Assembly (NCBI GenBank): GCA_049599475.1
Contig: JBMYOQ010000017.1
Coordinates: forward strand, 1 to 64,000
DNA length: 64,000 nucleotides
Reading direction: 5' to 3'
Source of the DNA: Opitutales bacterium
GTDB lineage: Bacteria > Verrucomicrobiota > Verrucomicrobiia > Opitutales > JABSRG01
Shown: positions 12,239-59,043 of the stretch, in pieces
Position numbering within the stretch: the first letter of the stretch is position 1
How the letters are laid out: every line of letters starts with the position of its first letter
Notes under the pieces: generated by a model
What the model was told of the DNA's origin: nothing
The model's input: only the letters and a program-made list of their open reading frames with translations
Databases searched by the model: none
Made by a program: the position numbers and the translations under genes

Positions 12239-12273
12239 TGTGTATTACTTAAAGGTTCACCAGTCAGACCAGA

Positions 12274-14328
12274 CTAGGGGTTCACTTTCAAATTTGAGAA
12301 GACTCTGTAGAAAACGGAGGCATCCATAGTTTCCTCTATAAACGCGTTTTCATAGGGAAACACAGCCCCCGTAAACTCTGCACCACAGATAGTCAGCTGC
12401 CTAACATCTCGAGCTTTAATAGCGTAAGGCGATGGCTCCCATAGGCCTGGTCCTCGGCGACTGCTAAGATTCGCAAACAACAGGTTCTTTGAGGTATTTA
12501 TCATAATACCGGGTCGGGCCTCACCCCCGGAAGACTCATGGATGTCCACGCCAAAGAATGACCAATTTTCCACACCATCCAACTCCATTTCGTAGCCTCC
12601 ATGGTGATCCACAGACATCTGGTACACACGCCCCGGCTTTTCCGTATTTTTCATATAGAATGGCTGCGCACTACGACTATCACTCAACCATATATTTTGA
12701 AAGTCGCCTGAAGAGTGTCCCTGTATCCACAACGAGCCTGCATGACGCGCATCCTCCGAACCGGTCATACCTCCAGAACCAAAATAGACATCGCTCACAG
12801 ATACATTTTGAGCCGCATCAAAGAGCATACCAACCGCACCAGGATTGTTTCCCAAATCAAAACCCAATCCTGATATCCGGGCAGATCCCTTTTCAGGCAC
12901 CTGAATTAACGACTTTACATCGTCTGATTTTTCGAACCCATGAGCAGCATCCTTCAGAACGATTCTAGTAGATCCGGGATGAAGCCCAATCAATCGCGAA
13001 TCTTTTTTCAAACGTAGTGGTTTCGATACGACGTATTCACCCATAGGGAAATAGACGCTCTCGGATTCATCGATTGCTTTTTGGATTGGCTTCCATGAAT
13101 CTGTTTGGCCATCCCCTTCAGCACCGAGCTCTGCTACGTTGGCCCACTGAACGATGTCCAACCTTTCTATGGATCCTTCTTCGCTCAAACTGCTGAATGT
13201 TTCGATCGGGGCTTGATCGAGATGAGTCGCGAACCGTGCGGGTTTTTCCGCTGTATTGGGTATCGTGATATGTCTTCCATGCGAGAAGGATTTGATCTCG
13301 TATTGAGAAGCCGGTGCTTCATAGACCCACTTCAATTCTTTGACGTTCCATCCCGCGGCACGGCCACTGAACCTCACAGAAAACGGGACGTCCGAAAACT
13401 TCAAGTTGTGCAAGTTTACATGTAGCTCCGGCGATACGTAGTTTCTGATACGCAGAGCTGTCTCATCAATGTTTTCAAAAGAGCTATCGCTTATATAAAT
13501 CCTCTCAAAAACGCGACCCAAGATTCCAATGGGCATATTCTTGAAAGCGGATCCCATAACAGTGAATCCTGAAAAGAAGGAATAAATAGCCTGCTCACGT
13601 TGCCCATCGAAGATACAGTTTTTCACCAAGGCAGGTAAGTCCATCGAGGAACGTTCTGAATAAATGGCCCAGGCACCTCCGTAGATATTACAATTCTCAA
13701 TAACATTTCCGATACGATCAATCGCCCCAAGTCCACCCCCGATGCTGAAATCAATATTCTTAAGCACGGAATTTCGGGCGGCCCCATAGCTTACCGCGAC
13801 CGCAGCGGGGTTACCGTCCTCAATCTGAAAGTTGATGTTGATAATCCCCGAAAAGTGCGTGCCTCCGCCCGCATCGGTCACCTCTTCATCCTTCCAGAGC
13901 CCATCTGTAGGTCGGCTCGCGCCCTTGGGTGCCTCGCAGAATTGGATGAGGTATCTTCTAAATCCGTCCTGAAATCCAGGGGTGTTTTCAGCTAATTTGA
14001 AGACAGGCCTCTCGGTGCCATATCCTACGAGGCGAATCCCTTGCCAGAGGCGTAGCGTACCGCCCAAACGGTAAGTCCCCTGTGGAACGTAGACGATACC
14101 CCCGCGCTCATCCGTCTCGAGCAGTGAATCGATGGCGGCCTGAATAGCCGGAGCATCGTCCCGAGTGCCATCTGCCGAAACATTGAATGACCCCGGCTTC
14201 AGATAGACTGCACTCGGGTCGCTCAGTTCGGTTCGGTAAATTGAGCGTATATTAAGGTCGTCGGCATGCGCAGCGTGCAGACACAACAGCAACGCAAAAC
14301 CAAGAAAGGTATTCCGGAGAAAGTTCAT
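12274..14328 (-). CDS. secreted double beta-helix glycan-active protein (Pectate_lyase_3 / GH55-like), paralog
   Basis: Signal peptide from MNFLRN; ADGTRDDAPAIQAAID and GAEGDGQTDSWKPIQKAID motifs; collinear with the neighbouring gene. Confidence 0.8.
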   Translation of the reverse strand: MNFLRNTFLGFALLLCLHAAHADDLNIRSIYRTELSDPSAVYLKPGSFNVSADGTRDDAPAIQAAIDSLLETDERGGIVYVPQGTYRLGGTLRLWQGIRLVGYGTERPVFKLAENTPGFQDGFRRYLIQFCEAPKGASRPTDGLWKDEEVTDAGGGTHFSGIININFQIEDGNPAAVAVSYGAARNSVLKNIDFSIGGGLGAIDRIGNVIENCNIYGGAWAIYSERSSMDLPALVKNCIFDGQREQAIYSFFSGFTVMGSAFKNMPIGILGRVFERIYISDSSFENIDETALRIRNYVSPELHVNLHNLKFSDVPFSVRFSGRAAGWNVKELKWVYEAPASQYEIKSFSHGRHITIPNTAEKPARFATHLDQAPIETFSSLSEEGSIERLDIVQWANVAELGAEGDGQTDSWKPIQKAIDESESVYFPMGEYVVSKPLRLKKDSRLIGLHPGSTRIVLKDAAHGFEKSDDVKSLIQVPEKGSARISGLGFDLGNNPGAVGMLFDAAQNVSVSDVYFGSGGMTGSEDARHAGSLWIQGHSSGDFQNIWLSDSRSAQPFYMKNTEKPGRVYQMSVDHHGGYEMELDGVENWSFFGVDIHESSGGEARPGIMINTSKNLLFANLSSRRGPGLWEPSPYAIKARDVRQLTICGAEFTGAVFPYENAFIEETMDASVFYRVFSNLKVNP

Positions 14329-14721
14329 GAGGGGATCGTCTACGTTAACCCGCACGGTACATTGTTTTCAATAAACCAAACACCCAGGAATCCTCCCGAA
14401 TATATGCCTAAACCTTTCTCATAATGATTTTTATGAACAAAGGGCGAACCGGAGATGTGGATTTACCATAATAAACGAAAACACTTTTGAGAGATGTTAT
14501 ATTACGATGCATAATAAGAGTTCGCTCCGATCCACTTGCTTAGCCGGAGCCCCAAAAGAGCGGTTGGTAATCCTCGACGGTCTCACACTTCCTAGGTTTA
14601 TGATTGTAATCAAAAGTCGTGGCCTTTTTCGTTCAAACATGAGTCAGGACTCACCCGGCTCATTCGTTTCTCTCACCTACTCAAAAGTTAAATCATTTGA
14701 GTTAACACTCATCTCATAAAC

Positions 14722-36787: not shown

Positions 36788-37249
36788 CTAATCAATAAAT
36801 GCCCAAAGCTTTTTCTGCGAGGTCTTATCAAGAGCGCTTCGATCTTTGATCTCATAAATATCACCAGCCAAATCTGTGATGAGTATATTGCCATTATCCA
36901 GGATCTGCGGAAACTCATCGAGCATGGTCTGGAGCTTACGTGGACCTCGATTCGTATCCACTTTCCACACACGCAGTTCGAAATCGCGTTCAATCTCGTG
37001 AATCTGCGTTATTTGAAAAGTAAATTGCCCTGCCCCGAGTGCTTCCTGAATTTTCAGCTGATCATCGGGGCTCAAAGTCGACACATCTTCGATCAGAGCA
37101 TGCTCTTTTCCTTTATCATCGCGCAAGGAAATATACGCGCCCTTCTCTGACCAAGGAAAGCACGGGCACGGGTTTACAGGCACCCACTCACCGCTTTCAT
37201 TTTGTACTGTGATGCGGCCTGACGCGCAGTTTTGTAATAAAATACTCAT
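36788..37249 (-). CDS. DUF1854 domain protein
   Basis: CFPWS...YISLRD...WKVDTNRGPR...ILITDLAGDIYEI...LDKTSQK; follows the ABC exporter. Confidence 0.85.
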   Translation of the reverse strand: MSILLQNCASGRITVQNESGEWVPVNPCPCFPWSEKGAYISLRDDKGKEHALIEDVSTLSPDDQLKIQEALGAGQFTFQITQIHEIERDFELRVWKVDTNRGPRKLQTMLDEFPQILDNGNILITDLAGDIYEIKDRSALDKTSQKKLWAFID

Positions 37250-37253
37250 GATT

Positions 37254-39560
37254 TTAAATAGCGTAGCTTTTGTGCATTTCACGTTGGAGTGAATAGAGAT
37301 TTTTATAAACCCCTTCTTTCATTTCGAGGAGGGCGTCATGCGTTCCCTGTTCTACCAAGCGTCCATCCTTCATTACCAATAGCCGATCAGCACGCCGCAA
37401 GGTCGACAATCGGTGGGCGATTGCGATGACTGTGCGGTTCTCAGTTAGGCGATCAATAGCATCTTGGATTTTCTGCTCAGTCTCGGTATCGACCGCCGAG
37501 GTAGCTTCGTCGAGAAGCAAGACGCGCGGATTGTGCAAAACAGCACGAGCAATCGAAACGCGCTGACGTTCGCCGCCTGAGAGCGTATGCCCACGCTCAC
37601 CGACAATCGTGTCATAAGCATTCGGGAGTTTGCAGATAAAATCATGTGCATTCGCCGATTTCGCAGCAGCGATTACATCCCCCGGACTCGCATCCGAAAG
37701 CCCATAGCGAATGTTCTCCAATATGGTTCCGTGAAACAAAAACGGATCCTGCATCACCATACCAATTTGTGTGCGCATATTTCCCAACTCCAGCTCACGG
37801 ACATCGATACCATCGATTTTCACCGACCCTGATGTCACGTCGTAGAAACGACTCAAGAGATTGAATATAGTACTTTTCCCCGCTCCAGATGGTCCAACGA
37901 GTCCGATAAATTCACCTTGATGAATCTCAAAAGAGACCCCTTTCAAAATCAATCTGACCGGATCGTATCCAAAGGTAACCTGGCTGAAGGAAATATTACC
38001 CATCATCGGACTAAGCGCCACCGGCTCTGGTGGATCCACGATTTCGGGTTCGGTATCCAACACTTCGAAGATTCGATGCGCCGAACTCAAGGCTCGGTTC
38101 ACCATACGCGAAAGCTGAGCAAATATCTCAATAGGATAGAAAAAGAGACCCAAGTAGACAAGGAATGATACAAAGACGCCCACCGTTAGGGACGGTTGAG
38201 ACCCTGGGCCACTTCCAATCAATCTCGGCAGCGCGAACATCCAAACCAGGACGCCCATGAGCTGTATCAAAAATATCAAGACTGGCCAGAATATCGTCCA
38301 GACCTTATTCAACCGCTCAGCCTCTACGAACACTGCTTCATTTTCCTTATCAAAGCGCGAACGTTCTCGGTTTGACTGGTCAAAAGCTTGAACAACCCGC
38401 ATACCTGGAATCGTATCGGAGAGGACCGCGGTCATATCCGACCATTTGCGCCAGATTCTTAAAAACCGGGAGTGCATGACTTTTCCGTTAAAATAAATCA
38501 GCAAGAAAATGGCTGGGAGCGGAGCCACCATCAGTAGGCCGAGTTTCCAATCGAGAATAATCAGCATCGATGAGAGTCCAACTAACAGCAAGGCACTGAC
38601 CGAGGCCTCTACGACTCCAAATGCCACGAAATCCCAAATACGGTCTGTGTCTGAGCTGACCCGGCTAATGAGCGAGCCCGTTCGCTTAGATGAGAAATAT
38701 CCCAGGCTCAGTCGGTGCAGGTGCCCGTATACATCTCGCCGCAAATCGCGAGCCACCAAATCCCCGATTACGGCCATGAATTTAAGCCGTATCCAGAGAA
38801 AAAATTCACGCAGCACGACCACAATCGCGATGTTCGCGATCAAAATCCAGCCAAGCGTTTTCGCTTCGCTCCAATCTAATTTCCCGTCGGCAAAGGGGTT
38901 GATCACGTCGTCAATAATGCGCCCTGTCAGATAAGGGGGAAATAACTGACAGACCGTCATGATGATCGCCGCTACAATACCCACCACCAACTGTTTTTTG
39001 TAAGGCTTAAGATAGGACAGTAATCGAATAAATACAGATGAGCCCGAAGTCGACACACTGGCCTGTGCCTTACGCACGGGAGTCCCTACAGATTCGGCAT
39101 AATGCTCATCGGGATCCGTTTCCGGCTGAATCGTCCCGCCTTCCAATGCCTGCCGCAGCAAAAAGACAATACCGCTGACACTCTGCTTCTGCCGGTGGCT
39201 ATAATGAACGTGCAACAGGGGCGGAGAGTCAGGATCGGCTTCAAGTATAAGCTGGGTACAGCTCAGCCCTGGAATTTCCCTAACGTATTGAATCTCTGAA
39301 CGCGGAAAGGACCGCACGACTAATTCGCCAGCATCCTTAAGCTTCACGAAGGCCACATAGTCCGGCCCTAAACACAGCCACGACTCTCCGAGCCGCATCC
39401 CAGCATCCAGATCGATCAAGGCATAGAGTTGAATAACGGACCCAGGACCTGCACCGTGTTGAGATTCAACAAGATCTCGAACTGCCTTAGGTAAGTTTAT
39501 CGGTTGATCTGTGTACCGGTCGACAATGTCGCGGTACATCTCGTTCGTTTTCGAAGACAT
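37254..39560 (-). CDS. ABC exporter (fused TMD-NBD) with N-terminal extension, DUF1854-associated type
   Basis: GPSGAGKST, LSGGERQR, LLDEATS, IAHRLST; TM domain; extra N-terminal region of about 170 aa. Confidence 0.93.
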   Translation of the reverse strand: MSSKTNEMYRDIVDRYTDQPINLPKAVRDLVESQHGAGPGSVIQLYALIDLDAGMRLGESWLCLGPDYVAFVKLKDAGELVVRSFPRSEIQYVREIPGLSCTQLILEADPDSPPLLHVHYSHRQKQSVSGIVFLLRQALEGGTIQPETDPDEHYAESVGTPVRKAQASVSTSGSSVFIRLLSYLKPYKKQLVVGIVAAIIMTVCQLFPPYLTGRIIDDVINPFADGKLDWSEAKTLGWILIANIAIVVVLREFFLWIRLKFMAVIGDLVARDLRRDVYGHLHRLSLGYFSSKRTGSLISRVSSDTDRIWDFVAFGVVEASVSALLLVGLSSMLIILDWKLGLLMVAPLPAIFLLIYFNGKVMHSRFLRIWRKWSDMTAVLSDTIPGMRVVQAFDQSNRERSRFDKENEAVFVEAERLNKVWTIFWPVLIFLIQLMGVLVWMFALPRLIGSGPGSQPSLTVGVFVSFLVYLGLFFYPIEIFAQLSRMVNRALSSAHRIFEVLDTEPEIVDPPEPVALSPMMGNISFSQVTFGYDPVRLILKGVSFEIHQGEFIGLVGPSGAGKSTIFNLLSRFYDVTSGSVKIDGIDVRELELGNMRTQIGMVMQDPFLFHGTILENIRYGLSDASPGDVIAAAKSANAHDFICKLPNAYDTIVGERGHTLSGGERQRVSIARAVLHNPRVLLLDEATSAVDTETEQKIQDAIDRLTENRTVIAIAHRLSTLRRADRLLVMKDGRLVEQGTHDALLEMKEGVYKNLYSLQREMHKSYAI

Positions 39561-39863: not shown

Positions 39864-40250
39864 TCATTTCGAGATCAATTCAGTGACTCGATCAAAGTCA
39901 GATATCAGATCAGAGTTGCTAGTATAGTGTAGCCTGTATGTCTTCTTCGCGACTATCGGTTCATCTTGGCCCGGGAAAGCTACGAGAATATCTTCGGTGG
40001 TATTAATCAGAATTTCGGAACGATTAATTCCAATCGAAGATATATCCGATATCCTTATAAATAACTTCTGATGAGCGATACTTCCTGCCCGGTGAGTAGT
40101 GTCGGACTTAAAATTGTAGACATAGCCTGATGAGGCTGCCCCTCGATCAATAAGCAAAAACTCGCCCTTTCTCTCGATAGTTTCAGCTAGAGAATAGTGG
40201 GTTAATAAACACAGCAGCAGTGGAAAAAAGTAGTAGTTTTTAAACTTCAT
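39864..40250 (-). CDS. small hypothetical secreted protein
   Basis: 128 aa, signal peptide ending SLA, AT-rich DNA. Confidence 0.6.
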   Translation of the reverse strand: MKFKNYYFFPLLLCLLTHYSLAETIERKGEFLLIDRGAASSGYVYNFKSDTTHRAGSIAHQKLFIRISDISSIGINRSEILINTTEDILVAFPGQDEPIVAKKTYRLHYTSNSDLISDFDRVTELISK

Positions 40251-40402: not shown

Positions 40403-41632
40403 TTACTCATGCCGCAACGCTTCCATGGGAGATAAATTCGCGGCCTTCCAGGCAGGAAACGAGCCGAAGACGACTCCCGTGAGCACAGATATGGATAGGG
40501 AAAGGATAAAGGACTCGATCGTGACTTGGGTAGGCATATCGGCATAGACAGCCACCAAGACAGCCAGGAGAACTCCCAGAATAGCACCCAATACGCCTCC
40601 AGACGCCGTCAGCACAATTGATTCAACAAGGAACTGTATCAGAATATCGCGGCGTGTGGCTCCCAGTGCGCGGCGCGTACCTATTTCTTTCATACGCTCA
40701 TAGATGTTCGCCAACATGATATTCATAATACCTATGCCCCCGACAAGGAGGGAGATGGACGCTATAGAAGCCATAACGATCGTAAAAATTCGCTGAGTCG
40801 CTTCCTGTTGCTTCATGAGCTCAAAGGGTAAAATGATTTTGTAGTCAGGGTCCTTATGAGCTCTTTGCATATAGGCCTGCATGCGCCGCGCAGTATCTTC
40901 AATCTTATCGACGTCTCGGACTACGACATAGATTAATGCAAATTTCGTAATTCTCTGCCGGGTAAGCGGCGCTGCCCAGACGTTGAATCCGGTCTCCGCA
41001 GGGACATACACCATCTGATTTATTCCTCCGAGCCCCGAGATCTCACGATCCGATGAATGGTGTAACACACCCACTACCGTGTGGTATACCCCCTTGAGCA
41101 TAAGGCGCTCACCAACAGGATTTCGAAATTCAAATAACTCTTTGGCGATTCGGCTCCCTAACACACACACCGGCGCGAAAGTAAGTTCGTCTTTGCGATT
41201 TATAAACCGACTTTGACTGTCGACCAAGCTGGCCTTCGTAATCTCTGGAAACGAAACAGGAACCCCCAAGATATGAACCCCTGGCTTCTGCACCCACTGG
41301 CTGATGACCGTTCCGCGCCACCCTGTGATCGGCAACACATCTGTCACATTATCGAACTCTGATTCGATGTGGCGGATGTCGTCCTCCGTGACACCGCTCG
41401 TCGCTTGAGCCCCTTCTTGTCCACCTTCGGGAGCGACCGATTGTATCAGAATCTTGTCTACACCCATTTCCTGAATCTGGCGGATAGACTCCAAGCGAGC
41501 ACCTTCGCCAATAGCCAACATTCCCACAACAGCACCGACGCCAAAGACAACGCCCAAGCCCGCTAGAAATGAGCGAAAGGGATGGGCCGTCAAACTCGCG
41601 ATCGAGAGGCGTAATGTATTGGAAAGACGCAT
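40403..41632 (-). CDS. MacB/FtsX-type ABC transporter permease
   Basis: RSFLAGLGVVFGVGAVV, SLLVGGIGIMNIML, ERMKEIGTRRALGA, PAWKAANLSPMEALRHE. Confidence 0.95.
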   Translation of the reverse strand: MRLSNTLRLSIASLTAHPFRSFLAGLGVVFGVGAVVGMLAIGEGARLESIRQIQEMGVDKILIQSVAPEGGQEGAQATSGVTEDDIRHIESEFDNVTDVLPITGWRGTVISQWVQKPGVHILGVPVSFPEITKASLVDSQSRFINRKDELTFAPVCVLGSRIAKELFEFRNPVGERLMLKGVYHTVVGVLHHSSDREISGLGGINQMVYVPAETGFNVWAAPLTRQRITKFALIYVVVRDVDKIEDTARRMQAYMQRAHKDPDYKIILPFELMKQQEATQRIFTIVMASIASISLLVGGIGIMNIMLANIYERMKEIGTRRALGATRRDILIQFLVESIVLTASGGVLGAILGVLLAVLVAVYADMPTQVTIESFILSLSISVLTGVVFGSFPAWKAANLSPMEALRHE

Positions 41633-41634
41633 AC

Positions 41635-42336
41635 TTAGCTTCGAATTATCCTTCCATCGCGAATCTCTATCACACGATCCACCTCGTGCTCATATTCCGG
41701 GTTGTGCGTGACCATGATGATTGAACGCCCTTCAGACCGTAGCTCACGAAAGATTTCCATGACCTCTTCACCGGTCTTTTCATCCAAATTTCCGGTCGGT
41801 TCATCCGCCAAGAGCACCGGAGGATCATTGGCCAGGGAGCGAGCTATGGCCACCCGCTGCCGTTGCCCTCCGGACAGCTCGGTTGGCTTGTGATCCAGTC
41901 GTTCGGCCAATCCCAGACGGCTCAATACTTTAACTGCACGGTCATGCATTTCAGCCCGCGGCAACTCTGCATAGAGCATCGGCACGCAGACATTATCCAG
42001 CACCGACATTTGTGGAAACAGGTTAAAGGATTGGAAAATAAACCCAATCTTGCGGCACCGGATTTGAGAGATCTGGTGATCAGGGAGGTCTGCGACATTC
42101 TGCTTATCCAACCAATATTCGCCTCCGCTAGGCTGGTCGAGCAATCCCAGGAGATTCAATAATGTAGACTTCCCTGAGCCAGAAGGTCCGACGATCGCCA
42201 CGAACTGACCGCGCGAAAATTGAAGCTCTAACGGGTGCAGGGCGTGCACAACTTGTTCGCCCATTTTGTAGCGCTTTGTAATGGCCTGCAGCCGTATCAA
42301 CTCATCGCCTGAGCTACCGATGGCTTCGCTAACCAT
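41635..42336 (-). CDS. MacB/LolD-type ABC transporter ATP-binding protein
   Basis: [42 protein letters not shown]. Confidence 0.97.
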
Positions 42337-42342
42337 GCCGGA

Positions 42343-44055
42343 TCAGCTTGCGCCCTCGTTCGCTTCCTCAACCTGAAGGAAGACGGAATCCCCGGGCTCA
42401 AGCCCTTTGATTATCTCTACAAAGCTATTCGAAGCACGCCCCGTTTCTACTTCCACCTCTGTGGAGTTGAAACCACTCCCGACTTTGCAGTAGCTGTTAC
42501 CTTCACGCGTGTAAATGGCTTCGATTGGAACGAAGATCGCATCCTCCACGGTCTCCACGAGGATTTCGATTTCCACCGTCATACCCGGGACTAGGCGCGG
42601 ATCCGTGCTATCCGTGCTAATTGTAGTTGTATAGACTCGAGGGCTTCGCGGATCCCATCGCATCACACGCTTAGACATCGACGCTATTTCCTCCACACGC
42701 CCATCCATCTCCAAATCTGGGAGAGCTGCGTTTTTCAATCGCGCGACTTGGCCTTTCTCAATACGCGACCTGTAAATCTCTGGAATATCGCAACGAACCA
42801 GGAACTGGGATAAATCTGGGATCCGAGCGACGACCTCCTTAGGAGATACTGAGGTGCCGATATTCAGTTCTTTTGGGGTTCGATTATTATTTTGGTTCGG
42901 GTTCCCAAGGGTCACCAGCCCATCGACAGGAGCCGTCAACACAAGACCTTCCAAATCACTCCGTGTCTCCTCCAACCGTTCAGTAAGGCGCTCTTTTTGG
43001 GTAATATATTCTGTCTCTAGCTTTTCTAGATCTTCAGGATATTTTTCTTTGAGTTCCGCGATACGCTCCTCGATTTTTTCCTGATCTCTCAGGAGCTTAC
43101 GGTAACGCCGATTCGCCTGAACGCTATCACTCTGGGCTTTGACAAGGGCCCGCTTCAGATTTAACTCGGTTTTACGGTCTGCTATCGTCAAGCGGCGTAA
43201 TGACTGCGGATGTTCATAGCGCCTGAACTGGCGATATGCCTTTCTAGACGTCTCCCAGGCAGCCAGGCTATCCTGCGCCTTCTTCTCCGCGATAGCGACA
43301 TTGCGCTCCGCCTTTTCTCGCGTGGCATCATCTTTAAGACGCGCTTCGGATAAATTTTGGTTGGCAAGCTCAAGCTGCTCAGAAGCCTCCAAGTAAGTCT
43401 CCTCCTGGTTCGTAATAGCCGCCTGCTTGTTTTTGGTCATCGCCCTGTAGTCGAGATTCTCATACTTATTGAGCGCATCTCGGGCGGATTCATACGCACT
43501 GCTCGCTTCTGCAAGCTTGCTCAGCGCCTCATCGCGTGCGACAGCCTGTGTATCGAGAAAAATATCAATGTTGAGCCGAGCATCTTCCCAGGACTCTTGA
43601 AGGGTGCGCATCTGCAACTCGAAGAGCTCGATTCGGTCCTCGACGTCCTCTTCGTAATCGACCGTCAAGTCATGCAGGCTCTCTTCGTACTCCGTAATTT
43701 TCTCGATATAAGCCTCCGACGAGAATCCGACGACCGGATCGCCCGATTTGAGCTCTGTCTTATCTTCGACGATATAGTCGATCCGCAGCCCAAGTTTTCC
43801 GACACCTTCAAACCTCAAATTATGATTTTTAATCGCATCGAGTTCACCGCGTGCAAGCACCGTAATCGGGAAGTCCCCGGCAGAGACTTCGTAATAGCGA
43901 TCCAGGGGGCCGTCCGCGCCTCCAGATGCTCCATCACCACCTTTCCCGCAACCTGCAAAGAACAGTCCTCCCCCTGCAAACAACACAAGAGTCACAACCC
44001 TCAATAAGTGCGTCGCACCGGGCTTAATTTTACTAACTGCTTGTCTAGGCATCAT
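42343..44055 (-). CDS. periplasmic adaptor (membrane fusion protein) with very long helical hairpin, probable lipoprotein
   Basis: Lipobox-like FAGC; lipoyl half-motifs ([15 protein letters not shown]); [21 protein letters not shown]...GLEPGDSV. Confidence 0.9.
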
Positions 44056-45289
44056 TATCACCGCCAAAGAAATTTTTAATATCTCCAGTCACAGAAGGCT
44101 CGGGGACACTTTCTTTATTGGCCTTTTCGATACGATCGATCTCTTCAGAGATTTTCGGATCGAGCGCATCGGGCTGGATGATAGTCTCGTCGCCAAACTC
44201 AAGTATCTTAATATTTAAGAAAATGATCAGCTGAGTCTGCGAGCTCTGACGACGATCCGAGGAAAACAAAGCTCCGACCAAGGGGACTTTGGACAACACG
44301 GGGGTCCGCCGAGTTGTATCGCGATCAGTGCTTTGCAATAGACCCGCCATAGAAATCAGTTGCCCGTCTTTTACTTCGAGCTCAGTGCGCGCTTGGCGCA
44401 CCGCAATAATCGGATTGCTCACATCGCCCGCCACACTGAAGCCGGTGACAGTCGATACTTCTGGATTCACCTCCAGCCGGACTCGATCTCCAGAAATCAT
44501 AGTCGGTTTTACGCTGAGCTTGATACCGACACTTTTGAATTCGGTAGACGTCGTCACGCCCCCGCTTGAAGTCGTTTGCGAGAGAATCGGGACTTCTTCA
44601 CCCGTTACGATACTCCCTTCTTTTCCGCGTTGAATAATAAGATTGGGAGCCGAGAGAATTCGGGCTTTTCCATTCGTTTCCAAGTAACGGATAAAGAGAT
44701 TTAACGATTCGGTGCCTTTGTCCCAAATCTGAGCACTGCCAATCCCTCCTTGGCTCGTGTTCGGAGCCGCGCCCGCCACATTAAGCTGACTCCCGATAGA
44801 TTGCACAAAGGGCTCCAGTTGACCGGCTGGCGACAGGGATTCAGCCAGGGACTCGTAAAATAGATCAACCTCCTTCTCGAGATCTGAATCGATATTGAGC
44901 TCCACAATTCGTGCCTCAATGAGCACTTGGGGCACTGGTTTATCAAGACGGTCGATAATCGATTGAAGCAGCCCGATATTGCTTGAACGGTCTGATACCA
45001 CGAGCTGATCCGACTCGCTACTCTCAGCAACCATTCCATCGATTGTGATAAATTCTTCTACGACTCGACGCAGCGTCGAAGCCTGGATGTATTTACAGTC
45101 ATAGATAAGCAATTCTTTTTCCGAAGATTCGACATTGCCGCTCAACTGAAATTCAAACTCCTTCAGCTGTAGGGCGTAGTCGTCTCCAAGAGCGTCATCA
45201 AGAACGTTTGCTGTATCCGTATCTTGCGCCCAAATTGGGGCACCAAACACAGTAAGTATAAGTAGAAAAAATAACGAAAGTGGGCGCAT
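44045..45289 (-). CDS. secretin family outer-membrane protein (minimal: one N domain plus secretin core)
   Basis: [67 protein letters not shown]; signal peptide; alternative start 45310. Confidence 0.92.
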
Positions 45290-45590
45290 GCAGTGGTGGA
45301 TCGAAGTCATTGCCGACCGCTCCGGACAAGGATCGAGAGTCTCGATCTGGATGAGGGGGTTCCCAGAGTCATGGCAGGCGTAGCTATGTTTGATTGAATG
45401 TTATAAAAATAACCGAAGAGGTCTCAAAGTTTCAGTCAGTGTTTTGAGACCGAAGCTCAGAGCTCGGCAGTCAGTCCTATTATTACGACTGACCCAGCTA
45501 ACGATCAGACACTTCACGCAAAATATCTTACAAATTTGGCCAATATTCACAGAAAATCGACGGAATCCCCTCAAACTATCCGAATAGACC

Positions 45591-45621
45591 AAAAAAAAGA
45601 GCCTCAAATTCCTTGAGGCTC
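45591..45621 (-). terminator. intrinsic terminator of the Hsp20 operon
   Basis: GAGCCTCAA / TTGAGGCTC stem with T8 on the minus strand. Confidence 0.85.
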
Positions 45622-45666
45622 CCTTGGGTTTTTTACGCACACTACCGGTGCAAATTATCTTCTTGG

Positions 45667-46047
45667 TTAAGCTACACTAATTCGACGAGCCTGTGCTTCC
45701 GCGGCTTTCTCTAGGCGGAGCGTGAGTACCCCATTCTCTAAGGATGCGCTGATTTTCTGCGCGTCCACTTGGGGGCCGAGTTTTAGATTGAGCTGATAAC
45801 CATAATCTCTTGATTCGCGGCGAATCACCTTCGCTCCCGCAGGAACCAGATCCTTTCGATTCGCTTTGACGCTCAAGGTTCCCTGTTCGGTCGAAATATC
45901 TACGGCGTCTTTTGCAACGCCGGGGATCTCGACGCTGACAGCATAGGCATCATCCAATTCTTCAATTCGATAAGCCGGACGGCGGTAAGTGTTGGTGTCG
46001 GCAGACGCATTGTCCGCGCTATTCTGGCAAGTGATTTGTGTACTCAT
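45667..46047 (-). CDS. Hsp20/alpha-crystallin family protein
   Basis: VEIPGV, ISASLENGVLTLRLEK. Confidence 0.93.
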   Translation of the reverse strand: MSTQITCQNSADNASADTNTYRRPAYRIEELDDAYAVSVEIPGVAKDAVDISTEQGTLSVKANRKDLVPAGAKVIRRESRDYGYQLNLKLGPQVDAQKISASLENGVLTLRLEKAAEAQARRISVA

Positions 46048-46095
46048 AATGAAATGTAGGTTTTTAGTTATTAATGGATCTCGAAGTGATTGAGC

Positions 46096-46488
46096 TTAGT
46101 TAATGGCAATTTTCTGAGCGGTCGCTTTGGCCTGCTTGGGTAGGTCCAGGCTGAGCACACCGTCTTCATATTTCGCGGAGACTGCAGAGGCATCTACGGT
46201 CTCTGGTAAGCGAAAGGCACGGGAGACCGAGCGTGCCGCCCCTGGGTCATTATCTTCTGAACGGCTCTCCGCCTGAACACGCACCTGGCCACGCTCGATT
46301 TCGATATCGAACGCATCCTTCGCAAATCCAGGTGCGTCCATGGAGACAACATACCGGTCGTCTAATTCGTAAACATTTGCGGTGGCGTAGGCCGGTTGAG
46401 CATCGAACTCGAACGCATTTTCAAAGATGCGATCGAGTTGCTTGATGAACGGGCTGAAGCTATTGCGATAGTAAGGTGTGATATACAT
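46096..46488 (-). CDS. Hsp20/alpha-crystallin family protein
   Basis: MDAPGF, RAFRLPETVD, AKYEDGVLSLDLPK; ATG at 46488. Confidence 0.93.
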   Translation of the reverse strand: MYITPYYRNSFSPFIKQLDRIFENAFEFDAQPAYATANVYELDDRYVVSMDAPGFAKDAFDIEIERGQVRVQAESRSEDNDPGAARSVSRAFRLPETVDASAVSAKYEDGVLSLDLPKQAKATAQKIAIN

Positions 46489-46544
46489 GTGATTTAGTTT
46501 TTGATATTTGAATTTCGGGTTTAGATCGAATGTGCCTCCCATAA

Positions 46545-52530: not shown

Positions 52531-54927
52531 ATGCCATGGCGCATGCTGCACTCCAAAACCGTGAAGGACCTCTTATTATCCTTTTTCTCCCGCAGTCTAT
52601 CACCGCGCGCGAGCATCCTCCTCATGTTCATTGGAGTGGTCCAATCAACATGCTTCGGCTATTCCGTGGCGGTAGTTCGCGATGGACCTTCAACATATTT
52701 TGATGAACTTCACCGCATTTTTGAGATAGAGATCAAACTACTCAACAGCGGCAAAACGGAGCCCGTTCTTAAAGAGATTGAGGCCACACCCTATGATATC
52801 GAATCCATTCGAGAGGCCCTCAGCACTGCCCTCAGTTCCGATGAATACGACGCCGTTTACACTTGCGGCATCATAGCTACAGAACTTGCGCAGGAGATCG
52901 CCAGAACTGATGGCAAACTGCTTAAACCCGTAATCGCTGGCTCCTTGCAATTGAATGAAATCGAGACCGATCTAGTCTCCCAGCAAGGCACCTCGGAGAT
53001 CGAAAACTATTCCCTCATAGTAACACCTAAACGAGTGTCCACCGATCTAGAGCGTCTATCAGGTATAACCGGCCATGCGGAAATCCAAGTTGTTATCGAC
53101 GAAATCTACATTAAAGCACTTGAATCGCGCATTCAAAAAGGTGAACAACAGTTTGCAGACACAATCGGAGTCTCTGTCCAACTGGTACCAGCTAGTGCAA
53201 ATGTAGAGGAGACGCTCTCCAGAATTTCTGCTGAAAGTAGTGCCGTCTATGTATCGATTCTCGATCGATTTGATGATGATTACCTCTCCTCTCTGTATGA
53301 AGGCCTCAAGGACCGCAGACTACCGAGCATGGCCATGAGAGGTCGCCAAGATGTTGAGAAAGGAGCCCTACTCAGCCTAGCTCAATTTAATCTAAATCAA
53401 ATTGCACGCCGCGCGGCCCTCAATCTACACCTGATGATAAGCGGCACGCCTGCATCTCGTTTACCGGTCTACCTACCATCCCAAGATCGGCTCTTTTTAA
53501 ACATGGAAACAGCGAGGGCCATTAACTGGGCTCCCAACTACGATACCGTTCTCGCCGCCGAAACGATCAATGCCGGAAGGTCGACAGCCGAAGCACCGAT
53601 AACGATCGAAAAGGCCATGCAGCGAGCAAGAGCCAACAATGTAAACGTCGATATCGCCGTCCGCACAGTTGATATATCTGAGTCGAATGTAGACATAGCA
53701 CGCAGTAGTCTTCTCCCGCAAGTGAGTGGCTCTGGTTCGGCGAACGAAAATCGCTTCTATGGACAACCCAGCTCTTCGATCGATTCTTCCAGTTCGGCCT
53801 CACTGGGCATACAGCTCCGCCAAATTCTCTTCAACGAAGAGGTCTGGAGCGGAATTCGTATTCAGAAGGATCTCCTCGCGGCTTCGAAAATGGACTTGCT
53901 CTCCACCGAATTAGATACGCTGGGCCTCGCGGCATCTGCATATCTTTCATGCCTATCAGCAGAGGCCCTTTACAATATAGAACGCGAGAATCTCAACCTC
54001 ACCTACAACAACGTGCAATTAGCTCGATTGCGCGTCGAAATCGGAGCAGCACAAGCCTCCGAACTGTTTCGCTGGGAACAGCAACTTGCCCGGGGGAAAG
54101 CAGTCCTGATTCAACGCGAGTCCGCACGCCTCAATGCTATTGTTCAATTCAATCGCGTTTTAGGTATGCCCCAGACCAGCACATGGTCCTTCGTCGACAT
54201 TGAGGTGGGTGACGATGAGCTCTACTTCCTCAACAAAAGCCTGTCTCCACTCATCAACAACACTCGTGACTTTGAGAACTTCGTCTACTTCGCGGTAAGC
54301 AAAGCAATTCAAAATTCTCCAGAGCTAGGAGCCTTCGACCTTCAACTCCAAGTCCAAGGGATCCAGCTCAGAAGCCTGAAGCGCGACTTCTACCTACCTG
54401 AAGTCTCCCTAAGCGGTCAATTTGGGCGAAACTACAGCAAGAATAACGTGAGCGATTGGAGCGGACAGAACCAAGCCTCGCTGGGCATGCAGGTGACTAT
54501 TCCAATATTCGAAGGAGGTGGGCGCTTCGATCAAATACGCCAACAGCGCGACACTATAGCGCGACTCGAGTCACAGCGCTTGGCGACCGTTCAAAGCCTC
54601 GAAGAATCGACTCTATCAGCCACCAATGCCATCCGTTCCGGACATCCAAATATCCGCTTGAATCGCGAGGCCCTGAAGGCAGCTCAGTCAAATTATGACT
54701 CGGTCAACGTTCGCTATGCACAGGGCGACACATCCTATCTCGATATTCTTGATGCACAGCAGGCATTGCTTTCACAAAAACAATCCCTTGCCACCGCCAC
54801 CTACGATTATCTCGCGGCCATTTACAGGCTTCAGCGTTCTATGGCCTGGTTCGAATACGACAAATCAGAATCCGAACGATCGAACTGGATTCAAGAGTTT
54901 CAGAATTTTAAAACCACCCAACCTTGA
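52531..54927 (+). CDS. TolC family outer-membrane factor fused to an N-terminal periplasmic binding-protein-like domain
   Basis: C-terminal OEP repeats (ARSSLLPQVS, FYLPEVSL, YAQGDTSYLDILDAQ); N-terminal ~340 aa ending LFLNMETARAI resembles ABC substrate-binding proteins; start uncertain. Confidence 0.85.
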   Translation: MPWRMLHSKTVKDLLLSFFSRSLSPRASILLMFIGVVQSTCFGYSVAVVRDGPSTYFDELHRIFEIEIKLLNSGKTEPVLKEIEATPYDIESIREALSTALSSDEYDAVYTCGIIATELAQEIARTDGKLLKPVIAGSLQLNEIETDLVSQQGTSEIENYSLIVTPKRVSTDLERLSGITGHAEIQVVIDEIYIKALESRIQKGEQQFADTIGVSVQLVPASANVEETLSRISAESSAVYVSILDRFDDDYLSSLYEGLKDRRLPSMAMRGRQDVEKGALLSLAQFNLNQIARRAALNLHLMISGTPASRLPVYLPSQDRLFLNMETARAINWAPNYDTVLAAETINAGRSTAEAPITIEKAMQRARANNVNVDIAVRTVDISESNVDIARSSLLPQVSGSGSANENRFYGQPSSSIDSSSSASLGIQLRQILFNEEVWSGIRIQKDLLAASKMDLLSTELDTLGLAASAYLSCLSAEALYNIERENLNLTYNNVQLARLRVEIGAAQASELFRWEQQLARGKAVLIQRESARLNAIVQFNRVLGMPQTSTWSFVDIEVGDDELYFLNKSLSPLINNTRDFENFVYFAVSKAIQNSPELGAFDLQLQVQGIQLRSLKRDFYLPEVSLSGQFGRNYSKNNVSDWSGQNQASLGMQVTIPIFEGGGRFDQIRQQRDTIARLESQRLATVQSLEESTLSATNAIRSGHPNIRLNREALKAAQSNYDSVNVRYAQGDTSYLDILDAQQALLSQKQSLATATYDYLAAIYRLQRSMAWFEYDKSESERSNWIQEFQNFKTTQP

Positions 54928-55982
54928 GGACAATTTCTATGCGGCTCGTCACCCTAGCTCTCTCAATTCTCCTAAGCACATTCAGCGGATGTAGCAAACC
55001 TGAGATCGTCGAAAGCAAACCACGCCCGGTGGTGTCGATGACTGTCGGCGACCCGGTCGATCAGAGCCAGCGCAGCTTTTCGGGACAGGTCATCGCAGGC
55101 GACTCCGCAAACCTCGCCTTCGAAGTGTCAGGTCGCATCGAGACCATGAATGCTCAACTTGGGAAACCCGCGAAGCGGGGTGACATCTTGGCTTCAATTG
55201 ACAAATCTGATTACGAAACACGCCTCTCTGACGCCAGCGCATCGCTCGAGCAGGCTTCCCAGGAACTCCTACGAGCCCAGCAGCTTTTCGAAACAGGAAA
55301 TGCCAGCCAAAGCCAACTCGAAAGCGCCATACGCACCGAGACGTCGGCGAGAGCCTCTTTCGACCTGGCTCAAAGGCAGCTGCGCAACACTGACCTAATC
55401 ATGCCATTTGATGGTGTCATTAGCAGCGTCGAGCTCGAGTCCCAAGAACTCGCCAGCGCAGGCCAGACCGTAGTGCGCATCCAGAAGAAGGGCATTTTCG
55501 AATTTCACTTTGGTGTTCCGACAGATCTCGTAAACTCGATTCAAAGCGGCTTCGCACTAGAAGTTTCAGTCAACGACGCGGGACCGACTCCCCTGAAGGC
55601 AACTGTCCTAAGAGTCTCGCCTTCCAGTAATTCTGACACCACCTATACAGTCGAATCACGACTGGAGAATTCCCCAGAAACAATCCGTGAAGGAATGGTG
55701 GGAGAAGCCCTTGTGGATCTTACGAATGCACAAGCAGAAGCTTATTTCGAGCTGCCGCTCGCGTCGGTTTTTGGAGGAGGCACCCAGTCGAAGCCCGCCG
55801 TATGGACTTTGAATCCCGGGGCTGATGGCACAGCGACCATCGAGAAAAAGTATGTTGAAACAGGCTTCCTTTTAAGGGATGGGCTCATCGCGATAACATC
55901 CGGTGTCGAGCCCGGAGACATTGTCGTCACCCGAGGGGTCAATGAGATCAAAGAGGGCATGATCGTTCGCTATCTCCAATAA
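54924..55982 (+). CDS. RND efflux periplasmic adaptor subunit (lipoprotein)
   Basis: Lipobox FSGC; LAFEVSGRI, MPFDGVI, GVEPGDIVVTRG. Confidence 0.93.
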   Translation: MRTISMRLVTLALSILLSTFSGCSKPEIVESKPRPVVSMTVGDPVDQSQRSFSGQVIAGDSANLAFEVSGRIETMNAQLGKPAKRGDILASIDKSDYETRLSDASASLEQASQELLRAQQLFETGNASQSQLESAIRTETSARASFDLAQRQLRNTDLIMPFDGVISSVELESQELASAGQTVVRIQKKGIFEFHFGVPTDLVNSIQSGFALEVSVNDAGPTPLKATVLRVSPSSNSDTTYTVESRLENSPETIREGMVGEALVDLTNAQAEAYFELPLASVFGGGTQSKPAVWTLNPGADGTATIEKKYVETGFLLRDGLIAITSGVEPGDIVVTRGVNEIKEGMIVRYLQ

Positions 55983-56001
55983 AATCGACCCCCCTTTCGC
56001 C

Positions 56002-59000
56002 GTGAATCCAACCGCCATCGCTTTAAAGAATAATCGGACGACCCTCGTTATCTATGCGGTCGTCATGCTGGTCGGCCTTGCCACCTACTTCAGTATAGGG
56101 CGGCTAGAGTATCCAGAATTCACGATTCGAAATGCTCAAATCATTACAAGCTATCCGGGGCGCAGTGCCGCAGAAGTCGAACAAGAGATTTCGATGCCCT
56201 TGGAGCAGGCCGTTCGTCAGATTGCAGAAATCGAAGAGGTTATATCGACTTCCAAACCCGGCCTGTCCATCGTCAGCGTTTCAGCGGGAGACCAGTATTT
56301 TGATCTGGCGCCCATTTGGCAGGATGTCCGAAACCAGATAGCAAATGTCCACCTGCCCTCCGGAGCCACCACACCATCAGTCAACGACAAGGTCGGCGAC
56401 GTCTTTCCCTACGTCTACGCGCTCACAGGCGATGGATTCCCAGATCGCGAACTCACCGAATACGCTGAAGATATCAGCGACGATCTGTTAAACCTTGAAG
56501 GCGTAGCAAAGGTCGAAATCCACGGAGAACAGGCTGAGACCATATACCTCGAATTCTCAACCACAGAACTCGCTTCCTACGGATTATCTCCGACAAGCGT
56601 GATCCAGCAACTAAACTCTCAAAACGCTGTGGCAAACAGCGGAAACGTGCTAGCCGGCACGGAGCGTTTAAACCTCGTAACACTCGGCGAGTTTGAAACG
56701 ATCGAAGAACTCGCGGATTATCGCCTGAGCCTACCCGGGAATACAACACAGGTCAGAATTTCGGACCTTTTTGATGTAAAACGTGGATACAAAGACCCGA
56801 TCAGTTCCATCTCTCATTTTAATGGAGAGCGCGTGGTCTGTATCGCAGTTTCCATGACTCCGGGTTTTGCTGTTACTGACGTAGGAGAACGCCTCGGAAT
56901 ATTCTTTGAGAAGTACCTAAATAATTTACCAGTCGGCCTGAACATCGAAACGATGTTTTACCAGCCCAAATACGTGGAGGCTTCGATTCAGAGCTTCGTC
57001 GCAAATCTAGGCCAAGCATTCTTTTTTGTCGTGCTGGTGATGTTTTTATTCGCTGGCCTACGTCTAGCGTTGATCGTCGGCGTCTTGGTGCCATCAGCCA
57101 TCATGATGACATTCGCCTTCATGCCTCAGGCCGGAGTGCAGTTGGAAATGATGTCTATTGCGGCCCTGATTATTGCACTCGGACTTTTGGTCGACAATGC
57201 AGTGGTCGTTTCCGAACAAATCTTGGTTCGGCTGAACCAAGGCCAATCGCGCGCAGAGGCAGTGAAAGCCGCGGGTAAAGGGCTGTTGGTGCCCCTGCTC
57301 GCTGCCAGTGGTACAACCATTGCGGCATTTTCTCCTATTGCGATCGCAGAAGGAGCCACCAGCGAATTCACCTACAGTCTCTTCGCGGTCGTTTCCATCA
57401 CACTGCTTTCGAGTTGGATTATCTCCCTTACAATAATCCCAATCTTCTGTTACTACTTTCTAAAGCCTCAGACAAAGGACACCTTCGTTGGACAGCTCCT
57501 AGCGAAGTCCTACGATCCATACGAGAAACTCTTACGCTTTATCCTAAAACTGGGCTGGGTCTATCCTATCATAATCGTAATGCTGACTTTCGGCGCCGCC
57601 TACGCCTTCAAGTTCGTACCGAGCATCTTCTTCCCGCCAAATGAACGAGGACAATTTATAATAGACGTAGAGCTTCCACTCGGGACTGACATCCTTGAGA
57701 CCGAAAAGAGCGTTCAAGTTCTAGAGGATTGGCTCCTAGCTCAAGAAGACGTTACAGACACCATATCTACATGGATCGGTAACGGTGGTCCAAGGTGGTA
57801 CCTTTCTCTCGCGTCAGAACCAGCAAACCCCAACTACTCCCTGCTATCCATTCTCACGAAGGTTGAAGATCCTGCGACGATTTCCGCTTTCATGGACGAG
57901 ATACGCAGTTTCGCACAGGAGAATATGGTCGGCGCACGCGTAAGCCCGAAAGCTCTCGAAAATGGTCCGCCCGTTGGAGACCCGATCCAGATTCTTCTCA
58001 CCGGCAAAGAGAGCCAAACCATTTATGAACTGCGCGATAAAATCTTCGCTGAGCTAGCAGACATCTCGGGGCTATACGACATGCGAGACAATTGGGGTGC
58101 GTGGGTAAAGCAGGTAAACATCGATCCAGATCCTGTGCGCACCGCGCAACTCGGCCTCACCACCGAATCCTTAGCCCAATATATTAGCCTGGAATACACT
58201 GGACTTACCGCATCGCAGTTTCGTGAGAAGGACAAATCTATCCCCATTACGATTCGCTCTCACGAAGATTACCGCACTCGGCCAGATCGGCTCAAAGACC
58301 TTCCGATTTTCGTAAATCAAGGCACCGTTCCCCTTAGCCAAGTCGCTGACGTTTCCGTAGTGTTCCAGCCAGGATCCATCATCCGCAAAGATGGATTCAG
58401 GGAAATGACCCTCAAAGGTAAAGTAACCGGAGCCTTCGCTTCCGACATACTCGCGGAAATCCAGCCAAGACTGGCCGCATTGATGGAGACACCAGAGTGG
58501 CCAGCAGGCTATGAAATCGCCTACGGGGGCGAACAGGCTGAAAGCGCTGAATCCCAAGGAGGCATTGCTGCAGCTATGCCGATTTCGATGGCCGCCCTAT
58601 CGCTGATCTTGATTGCTCAATTCAACAGTGTCCGGCGCTTTGCCATCATCATGTGCACCATACCCCCCATGCTGATCGGTGTCACCCCGGGGCTCATTAT
58701 TACCGGGTCTTCCTTCGGCTTCATGACACTCCTCGGGCTCATTGCTCTTCTGGGAATTATCGTCAACAACGCCATTCTCTTGATCGATGAGATCAACCTG
58801 CAGCTGGAAGAACAGGAGTCACTAGTAGAAGCCATCGTTACCGCTTGTCGGTCGCGATTGAGACCTATCATCCTAACCACCTGCACGACCATTGTAGGCC
58901 TCGTTCCGCTTGCTCTGGGAGGAGGCGGCATGTGGAGTTCAATGGCCTACGCGATGATGTTCGGTCTTGGGTTTGCGACGGCTCTTACGCTCCTCCTTTG

Positions 59001-59043
59001 CCCAGTTCTCTTCTATCTATTTTTTAAAAGACAGATCGCCTAG
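56002..59043 (+). CDS. RND efflux transporter permease subunit (AcrB/AcrD/AcrF family)
   Basis: 1013 aa; ALGLLVDNAVVV, GIIVNNAILLID, RLRPIILT. Confidence 0.97.
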   Translation: MNPTAIALKNNRTTLVIYAVVMLVGLATYFSIGRLEYPEFTIRNAQIITSYPGRSAAEVEQEISMPLEQAVRQIAEIEEVISTSKPGLSIVSVSAGDQYFDLAPIWQDVRNQIANVHLPSGATTPSVNDKVGDVFPYVYALTGDGFPDRELTEYAEDISDDLLNLEGVAKVEIHGEQAETIYLEFSTTELASYGLSPTSVIQQLNSQNAVANSGNVLAGTERLNLVTLGEFETIEELADYRLSLPGNTTQVRISDLFDVKRGYKDPISSISHFNGERVVCIAVSMTPGFAVTDVGERLGIFFEKYLNNLPVGLNIETMFYQPKYVEASIQSFVANLGQAFFFVVLVMFLFAGLRLALIVGVLVPSAIMMTFAFMPQAGVQLEMMSIAALIIALGLLVDNAVVVSEQILVRLNQGQSRAEAVKAAGKGLLVPLLAASGTTIAAFSPIAIAEGATSEFTYSLFAVVSITLLSSWIISLTIIPIFCYYFLKPQTKDTFVGQLLAKSYDPYEKLLRFILKLGWVYPIIIVMLTFGAAYAFKFVPSIFFPPNERGQFIIDVELPLGTDILETEKSVQVLEDWLLAQEDVTDTISTWIGNGGPRWYLSLASEPANPNYSLLSILTKVEDPATISAFMDEIRSFAQENMVGARVSPKALENGPPVGDPIQILLTGKESQTIYELRDKIFAELADISGLYDMRDNWGAWVKQVNIDPDPVRTAQLGLTTESLAQYISLEYTGLTASQFREKDKSIPITIRSHEDYRTRPDRLKDLPIFVNQGTVPLSQVADVSVVFQPGSIIRKDGFREMTLKGKVTGAFASDILAEIQPRLAALMETPEWPAGYEIAYGGEQAESAESQGGIAAAMPISMAALSLILIAQFNSVRRFAIIMCTIPPMLIGVTPGLIITGSSFGFMTLLGLIALLGIIVNNAILLIDEINLQLEEQESLVEAIVTACRSRLRPIILTTCTTIVGLVPLALGGGGMWSSMAYAMMFGLGFATALTLLLCPVLFYLFFKRQIA

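Follow-up and report, generated by a model that had tools for sequence, protein, structure and literature searches.

Introduction

According to reviews, tripartite pumps release their cargo through a channel of the TolC family, and it is pilus-type, needle, or phage machines that use secretins. MacB does not transfer cargo across the inner membrane; its ATP hydrolysis is converted into periplasmic work, and the cargo leaves via the adaptor and TolC (PMC5985334). The nearest precedents for the arrangement described here are the type III systems, which captured secretins at least three times (PMC3459982), and slime secretion, for which secretins are required (PMC12475490). Here, we analyzed an operon in a stretch of 64,000 nucleotides (the window; positions 1 to 64,000 of contig JBMYOQ010000017.1, assembly GCA_049599475.1) from an Opitutales bacterium of the phylum Verrucomicrobiota, in which a secretin gene is followed by genes for an adaptor, an ATP-binding cassette (ABC) ATPase, and a MacB-type permease. 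We consider it likely, on sequence-based grounds, that this secretin is the dedicated exit channel of the pump and that it arrived by one ancient exchange with TolC.

We found no description of a secretin-linked ABC/adaptor pump in the literature, which was covered mostly at the abstract level and with most subscription papers outside the scope. The word "secretin" has 0 occurrences in the accessible parts of two adaptor reviews (PMC4446572, PMC13328181) and the MacB review, and those of PMC12134334, PMC3422733, and PMC9239133 contain nothing on such an arrangement. The export machine thus seems to be undescribed; its parts are all known, and the novelty would lie in their combination.

A secretin gene heads a conserved MacAB-type operon

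Four open reading frames (ORFs) on the minus strand, spanning 40403-45310, follow the order secretin, adaptor, ATPase, and permease (Table 1). An earlier interpretation of the letters alone (the sequence-only reading) had described a tightly coupled operon without TolC that begins with a secretin, and this description was confirmed: the ORFs lie at the positions claimed, the secretin stop codon (44047-44045) overlaps the ATGATG of the adaptor, secretin and adaptor genes share 8-11 nt, the following gaps, read directly, measure 6 and 2 bp, both peptides quoted as secretin lie within the secretin ORF, and the operon comprises only the four genes named. The secretin start at 45289 that had been given is an in-frame ATG at Met8, and the ORF itself begins at 45310. 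The GC content of the operon is 51.0%, compared to 50.5% in the genome. A Pfam scan of 52 window ORFs detected no type II secretion system (T2SS), type III secretion system, type IV pilus (T4P), or Tad family besides the secretin itself, as had also been claimed.

We sampled 401 genomes of Verrucomicrobiota, the phylum of the window, 401 genomes of Planctomycetota, and 80 metagenome loci. A scan of the genome collection gave 18 loci, of which 13 had at least 46% identity, and the other five were Nitrospina GspDs at 30-32%. As 12 of the 13 closest loci, which belong to Coraliomargarita, Lentimonas, Puniceicoccaceae, and Opitutaceae, share the full four-gene order, the arrangement is not due to chance. 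Secretin matches with an E value of 1e-40 or better occurred in 67/401 Verrucomicrobiota genomes, and a profile of the adaptor, built from clade members, placed 76/401 genomes above a score gap (381 versus 341 bits) at which the cut was set after the scores had been seen. The secretin and adaptor clades co-occurred in all 76 genomes, with adjacent genes in 74. All 67 secretin genomes were among these 76, and the genes were adjacent in 65 of them; of the two others, one had both genes at contig ends and one was split. For the nine genomes that had been found by the adaptor alone, an upstream secretin was predicted blind, and the full order was indeed present in 9/9. Among the 67 loci, 40 were examined in full and comprised 36 four-gene loci, two at a contig edge, one with secretin and adaptor only, and one without adaptor.

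In Planctomycetota, the secretin profile matched 38/401 genomes, eight of them far above the rest. The full order was present in six of these eight, in one of them with a stop in the secretin frame (L212:7668-9581, upstream of the barrel), and the two remaining genomes have a clade-matched adaptor and permease elsewhere. The order is thus conserved across the relatives in which synteny was checked. One protein from outside the two phyla is labelled Sumerlaeota. In total, the three split genomes and the one secretin-adaptor-only genome checked contain a clade-matched adaptor and/or permease elsewhere. The 80 metagenome loci, among which are many near-duplicates, comprised 22 full loci, 30 cut by contig ends, six without a detected ATPase, 21 in which secretin and adaptor are followed by other genes (a few of these also hold an ATPase or part of one), and one without adaptor. 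As 21/80 loci keep the pair and only 1/80 lacks an adjoining adaptor, the secretin-adaptor link is the one that best survives breakage of the operon. Neither a fifth conserved gene nor a cargo gene recurred; the largest cluster of neighbors touched 11/69 loci and consisted of other ABC ATPases. Taken together, the arrangement is real, ancient, and tightly conserved.

Some loci deviate from the four-gene order. Secretin, adaptor, and permease occur without an intervening ATPase gene in L107, L108, L110, L112, and L113, where the ATPase is presumably provided in trans. Secretin and adaptor alone, often after a Zn-ribbon/PTS EIIA (phosphotransferase system) gene, are found in L059, L120-L125, L133-L136, and L147-L157; one genome of this subgroup (G257) has an ATPase-permease pair on another contig. 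In L131:7761-9496, the 3' part of the permease directly follows the secretin, reflecting a deletion or misassembly. In L101 and L114, secretin and adaptor look fused, which was rejected as an artefact of ORF calls in another frame.

A sister family with TolC in the slot of the secretin

The next-best adaptor scores (246-341 bits, 74 adaptors) define a sister family. Of these 74 loci, 31 were examined, and Pfam detected an outer-membrane efflux protein (OEP) gene directly upstream of the adaptor, in the slot of the secretin, in 30; with one locus found earlier, the count is 31/32. A local OEP profile matched 0/149 secretin-clade loci. The sister pumps (L268-L298, L177) are of the MacAB type, widespread in the Planctomycetota-Verrucomicrobiota-Chlamydiota (PVC) group, and have a hairpin of about 198 residues and long OEPs of 469-749 aa. 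They seldom share a genome with secretin pumps: by hand count, 68 genomes had only the sister type as best match and four showed both types, with three candidates scored per genome and kin that are not independent. This hints that both pumps do the same job.

In the trees, the secretin-linked clades received SH-aLRT (Shimodaira-Hasegawa-like approximate likelihood ratio test) values of 99 (adaptor with hairpin), 98 (adaptor without hairpin), 98 (permease), and 95 (secretin), and sister and secretin-linked adaptors grouped together with a value of 98 in the adaptor tree. As TolC-linked forms surround the secretin-linked clades in the adaptor and permease trees, TolC appears to have come first, with the roots lying on long outgroup branches. 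Where operons are split, their parts group in corresponding subclades of the secretin tree and the adaptor tree.

Next to the secretin clade, the tree contains a sister clade of 22 mostly short secretins from Planctomycetota (L216-L226, L228, L198-L208). L222 contains a tandem pair of them, and some are preceded by a gene of 130-150 aa without a Pfam match. These short secretins are a possible donor pool for the swap.

The secretin has a single periplasmic domain

The secretin consists of a signal peptide, short helices, one N3-type domain, a barrel with both gate hairpins and an amphipathic loop, and a helical C-terminal tail. Pfam detected Secretin (E 5e-42) and one Secretin_N domain (E 4e-5, below the curated cut-off), and the monomer model (predicted local distance difference test, pLDDT, 81) showed one N domain, the secretin fold, both gate hairpins, and the amphipathic loop. 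Both approaches agree with the single short N domain that had been noted before; N0-N2 are absent. The model resembles GspD, PilQ, and pIV (to 9K8V, VIA-align Z 15.6, root-mean-square deviation 5.4 Å over 286 residues). The closest named family is GspD (TIGR02517) with 187 bits versus a cut-off of 351; PilQ (TIGR02515) gave 145 versus 284, and the secretin stays under every NCBIfam cut-off. Databases label the clade secretins GspD, and ESM Atlas returned secretin clusters only.

Across the clade, PF00263 was found in 84/84 secretins and PF03958 in 67/84. An N0/STN match was found in 0/84, with a Pfam library that does detect N0/STN in the secretin on contig C14 of the same genome. Ahead of N3 and including the signal peptide, 78/84 secretins have 64-121 residues, and the rest have up to 201. 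Known secretins contact their inner-membrane partners through N0 (PMC10550240). A cysteine at residue 72 (about 45095-45097), in the Y-x-C-R/K-Y motif of N3, is present in 23/29 adaptor-linked secretins and in 0/22 of the stand-alone sister clade, and is a useful marker of the adaptor-linked clade.

The adaptor keeps the MacA body and has lost the TolC-docking tip

The adaptor matches HlyD_D23/HlyD_3 in Pfam and has a lipobox-like Cys40 as well as membrane-proximal, beta-barrel, and lipoyl domains. Its model (pLDDT 89) is MacA-like with a single 256-residue hairpin, and MacA is the best match in both sequence and fold. Its database relatives carry PF25990, a YknX-like barrel family. E430, Y479, and T497 correspond to the hexamer-closing residues of MacA (PMC8277102, section 7.3), and they are conserved across the secretin-linked adaptors (E in 99/99, Y/F in 99/99, T/S in 98/99). 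It is therefore probable that the adaptor tube still sets the bore.

At 1.5 Å per residue, the hairpin would extend over about 185 Å. Within the secretin-linked family, its length is about 200 residues in 70/84 and 258 in 14/84 adaptors. The sequence-only reading had stressed the long adaptor, and the length as such stands; it is not special to secretin-linked pumps, as the hairpin of the sisters has about 198 residues compared to 200 (192-200 in 24/32 sisters parsed by sequence pattern). For the same reason, we rejected the idea that the long hairpin replaces the missing alpha-barrel of TolC. The long hairpin is older than the proposed TolC-secretin swap.

What does differ is the distal part. 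Docking on TolC involves the RLS motif (PMC4446572, PMC13328181), whose L and S are represented in the sister adaptors: a tip Leu is invariant in 32/32, and L-x6-S/T was found in 28/32 sisters versus 10/99 secretin-linked adaptors; a stricter pattern, drawn up after viewing the sister adaptors, gave 27/32 versus 2/99, and R-x3-L-x6-S/T was found in 0/84 secretin-linked adaptors. The span between the mid-hairpin Tyr and its partner is 75 residues in 31/32 sisters and 81-85 in 99/99 secretin-linked adaptors (83 in 84 of them), so that the distal hairpin is eight residues longer in the latter. This span is constant even where the proximal hairpin grew by 58 residues. A belt of aromatic residues and proline (Y202, F281, Y284, P287) is conserved at a fixed distance from the tip; F281 is present in 90/99 and P287 in 94/99 secretin-linked adaptors, compared to Leu in 23/32 and Pro in 7/32 sisters at these positions.

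Proposed mechanism

The proposed exchange of TolC for a secretin builds on the four genes and their folds, their joint inheritance, the swapped slot relative to the sister family, and the lost TolC-docking tip, all of which were observed; from these, we infer that secretin and adaptor bind each other. By analogy to MacAB, a permease dimer and two ATPases would generate ATP-driven movements of the periplasmic domains, and cargo would be pushed from the periplasm or the inner-membrane face into the six-subunit adaptor tube. The distal 40 or so residues of this tube (~60 Å), which have a fixed length, may then slide into the N3 ring of the secretin rather than dock tip to tip, an entry that can be likened to that of a pseudopilus, needle, or phage, and the ATP stroke would open or prop the central gate. 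In phage pIV, the N3 ring has a width of 74 Å, and the opening of the gate has been linked to N3 (PMC8563730). Such an entry would tolerate the symmetry mismatch of 6 versus about 15 subunits, and it would also account for a distal part of constant length, for a variable tip, and for the absence of N0-N2. The most likely cargo, by analogy to the TolC-linked sisters, would be a peptide, a small protein, or a lipid-linked or other envelope molecule. The export of large or folded cargo that the sequence-only reading had suggested is not supported, as the MacA hexamer residues have been retained and the operon is not accompanied by a cargo gene. With tube and gating ring probably still setting the bore, nothing points to large folded cargo, although it is possible.

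A bolder version, which we regard as doubtful, is a new secretion machine in which a type VII ABC motor drives the adaptor as a piston inside the secretin and opens the gate for cargo that would not fit through TolC, such as folded proteins or polymers. If true, no tripartite pump before it would have had an exit other than TolC, and one more kind of machine would have captured a secretin.

We also looked for traces of contact between secretin and adaptor. Charge complementarity of tip and N3 was not seen. Covariation analysis (mutual information with average product correction) of 84 pairs was shallow, with an effective number of 62; its top pairs were clade-marker columns, and no clear contact pattern emerged within the proteins either. 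The mirror-distance correlation of secretin and adaptor (r = 0.94) is expected from co-inheritance and was not counted as evidence for contact.

Alternatives and points of caution

Several observations weigh against the secretin as dedicated exit channel. No docking surface stands out, since secretin-linked adaptors have a poorly conserved tip and both this tip and N3 are net acidic. The long hairpin is no adaptation to the secretin, because it is about equally long in TolC-linked sisters. RLS is not universal, as adaptors without it can bind TolC (PMC4446572), and its pattern occurs in only 1-3 of the eight other adaptors of the genome; its loss is therefore only suggestive and compatible with TolC use. 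Nine OEP genes of the genome could act in trans. The secretin is unlinked from the adaptor in three genomes, and neither adaptor nor T2SS nor pilus genes were detected beside the short secretins of the Planctomycetota sister clade. In addition, the trees are quick maximum-likelihood trees (LG+G4) without bootstrap, and, as kin are not independent, all counts descend from one evolutionary event.

All linkage evidence would fit equally well if the three parts bound each other and the ABC/adaptor part were a gating motor instead of a pump, opening the secretin for free passage of large molecules, possibly inward (e.g., oligo- or polysaccharide into the periplasm). Type VII ABC transporters perform mechanical work outside the cytoplasm, many of them without being pumps (PMC5985334), polymers other than proteins can pass through secretins (PMC12475490), and the lack of a linked cargo gene would suit this model as well. 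We nevertheless consider it unlikely, as the kept hexamer residues speak for a sealed MacA tube that would fill the lumen, the TolC linkage of the sister adaptors implies export, and no sugar-binding or TonB-type genes recur among the neighbors. Another thought is that the genes are merely co-regulated, with the secretin serving T2SS or pilus machinery in trans or acting as a free pore, and with the ABC/adaptor part working without an outer-membrane channel, as YknXYZ does, or helping in secretin assembly. GspD is indeed the closest named family, the genome has one T2SS and two PilM/N-type loci, and the 22 stand-alone secretins of Planctomycetota show that such secretins can exist without a pump. 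However, the genome encodes four secretins, and the other three (696-917 aa) belong to a complete T2SS locus (GspE, F, G, K, pseudopilins) and to two PilN- or PilM-type loci, so that each of these loci has its own long secretin. The operon secretin lacks N0, scores far under the GspD cut-off, branches apart from these three in the tree, and occupies the exact TolC position of the sister operons; GspE, GspF, GspG, and PilM queries matched none of the secretin-clade loci searched, their matches being confined to Nitrospina and to the loci of the genome itself. We therefore judge mere co-regulation to be quite improbable.

Least of all do we favor an adaptor that still uses a TolC encoded in trans, for example at 52531-54927, with the secretin as a hitch-hiking first gene. 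The number of OEP genes and the existence of TolC-binding adaptors without RLS would permit it. It is, however, highly improbable in view of the tip motif and the distal hairpin length, which changed exactly in the clade with the secretin in the slot. The TolC at 52531-54927 is the first gene of its own adaptor-AcrB operon, and the adaptor partnered with it has a canonical R-x3-L-x6-S tip. Hitch-hiking would also leave unexplained the 76/76 co-occurrence and the retention of the parts after operon splits. Of the original proposal, the placement of the secretin in the slot of the outer-membrane factor (OMF) thus stands, given the OEP at this place in 31/32 sisters, and the checks of synteny, of grouping with T2SS or T4P secretins, and of TolC in trans did not contradict it as far as they were run; the role as exit channel is what we infer from this.

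Features and surroundings of the operon

The operon probably has its own promoter, because a terminator-like hairpin ends the hsp20 gene pair that lies in tandem upstream (45667-46542, minus strand). The promoter candidate is weak, as four sigma70-like sites were observed versus 6.7 expected by chance.

Table 1. Coordinates of the operon genes, their domains, and putative control elements.
Feature	Positions	Strand	Remarks
Permease	40403-41632	-	MacB-type (type VII); MacB periplasmic core domain and FtsX domain (Pfam, NCBIfam)
ABC ATPase	41635-42336	-	MacB/LolD-type; ABC_tran in Pfam; intact motifs: Walker A, signature, Walker B, D-loop, and H-loop (direct read, Pfam, NCBIfam)
Adaptor	42343-44067	-	574 aa from TTG; ATGs at 44055 and 44052
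Alpha-helical hairpin of adaptor	42949-43716	-	Single, very long; helices 118-242 and 247-373 (model)
Hairpin tip of adaptor	43300-43371	-	About residues 233-256; variable, acidic, without L-x6-S/T TolC-docking motif
Secretin	44045-45310	-	421 aa
N3-type periplasmic domain of secretin	44936-45127	-	Only one; about residues 62-125 (Pfam, structure model)
Sigma70-like promoter candidate	45398-45427	-	9/12 matches; weak
Terminator-like hairpin closing the upstream hsp20 pair	45595-45625	-	14-pair stem and T run; consensus match only

Just downstream of the operon, an ABC exporter (ABC_membrane and ATPase, with an N-terminal extension of about 190 aa) is coupled to a DUF1854 gene (36788-39560, minus strand); no such exporter ATPase was found beside the operon in the 12 closest relatives. 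Between both, a visibly AT-rich stretch contains a 128-aa ORF without a Pfam match (39864-40250, minus strand). The OEP-adaptor-AcrB operon extends over 52531-59043 (plus strand), and its TolC has 798 aa, of which about 370 N-terminal residues have no Pfam match. A tandem pair of pectate-lyase-like proteins of about 690 aa is encoded at 10184-14355 (minus strand).

Significance

If the secretin is the exit channel, a secretin-wired ABC pump would break two rules at once, namely that such pumps exit only via TolC and that secretins serve only pilus, needle, or phage machines. Outer-membrane channels would then be exchangeable across unrelated folds and symmetries, and a further secretin capture would have been made by a motor unrelated to type III. 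With the TolC-linked sisters, the states before and after the exchange are both at hand for structure and chimera work, and one ATPase with one adaptor would be a simple system to study how a secretin gate opens. The idea looks testable, as close homologues of both secretin and adaptor occur in a named species, Coraliomargarita akajimensis. On the practical side, the GspD naming of the clade secretins may mislead T2SS counts in PVC genomes.

Comparison with known systems

MacAB-TolC of E. coli (PDB 5NIK, 9QGY, 3FPP) shares with the operon the type VII permease with MacB core, the ABC ATPase, and the MacA-like adaptor with its hexamer residues. Unlike MacAB-TolC, the operon has a secretin in the slot of the OMF and encodes ATPase and permease by separate genes, and the secretin-linked hairpin of 200-258 residues is several times longer than that of MacA and has no RLS-type tip. 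A canonical OEP-adaptor-ATPase-permease operon on contig C13 of the genome analyzed here follows the same order of channel, adaptor, ATPase, and permease. Type I secretion (HlyBD-TolC) uses the type IV fold of ABC_membrane, whereas the permease here is of the MacB/FtsX type. The split ATPase and permease and a hexameric adaptor recall YknWXYZ of Bacillus and Spr0693-0695 of Streptococcus, in which the adaptor works without TolC (PMC8277102); these are monoderm systems without an outer-membrane partner, whereas a secretin is co-inherited here. With GspD, PilQ, SctC, RcpA, and pIV, the secretin shares N3, the double barrel, the gates, and the amphipathic loop. It differs from them by the lack of N0-N2 and by its ABC/adaptor partner, and no pilin, PilB/GspE ATPase, or platform genes lie nearby. 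The TolC-linked PVC sister pumps have the same gene order, a hairpin of about 198 residues, and the KY...Y belt in mid-hairpin, but they carry an OEP in the first slot, an L-x6-S/T tip, and a distal span of 75 instead of 83 residues.

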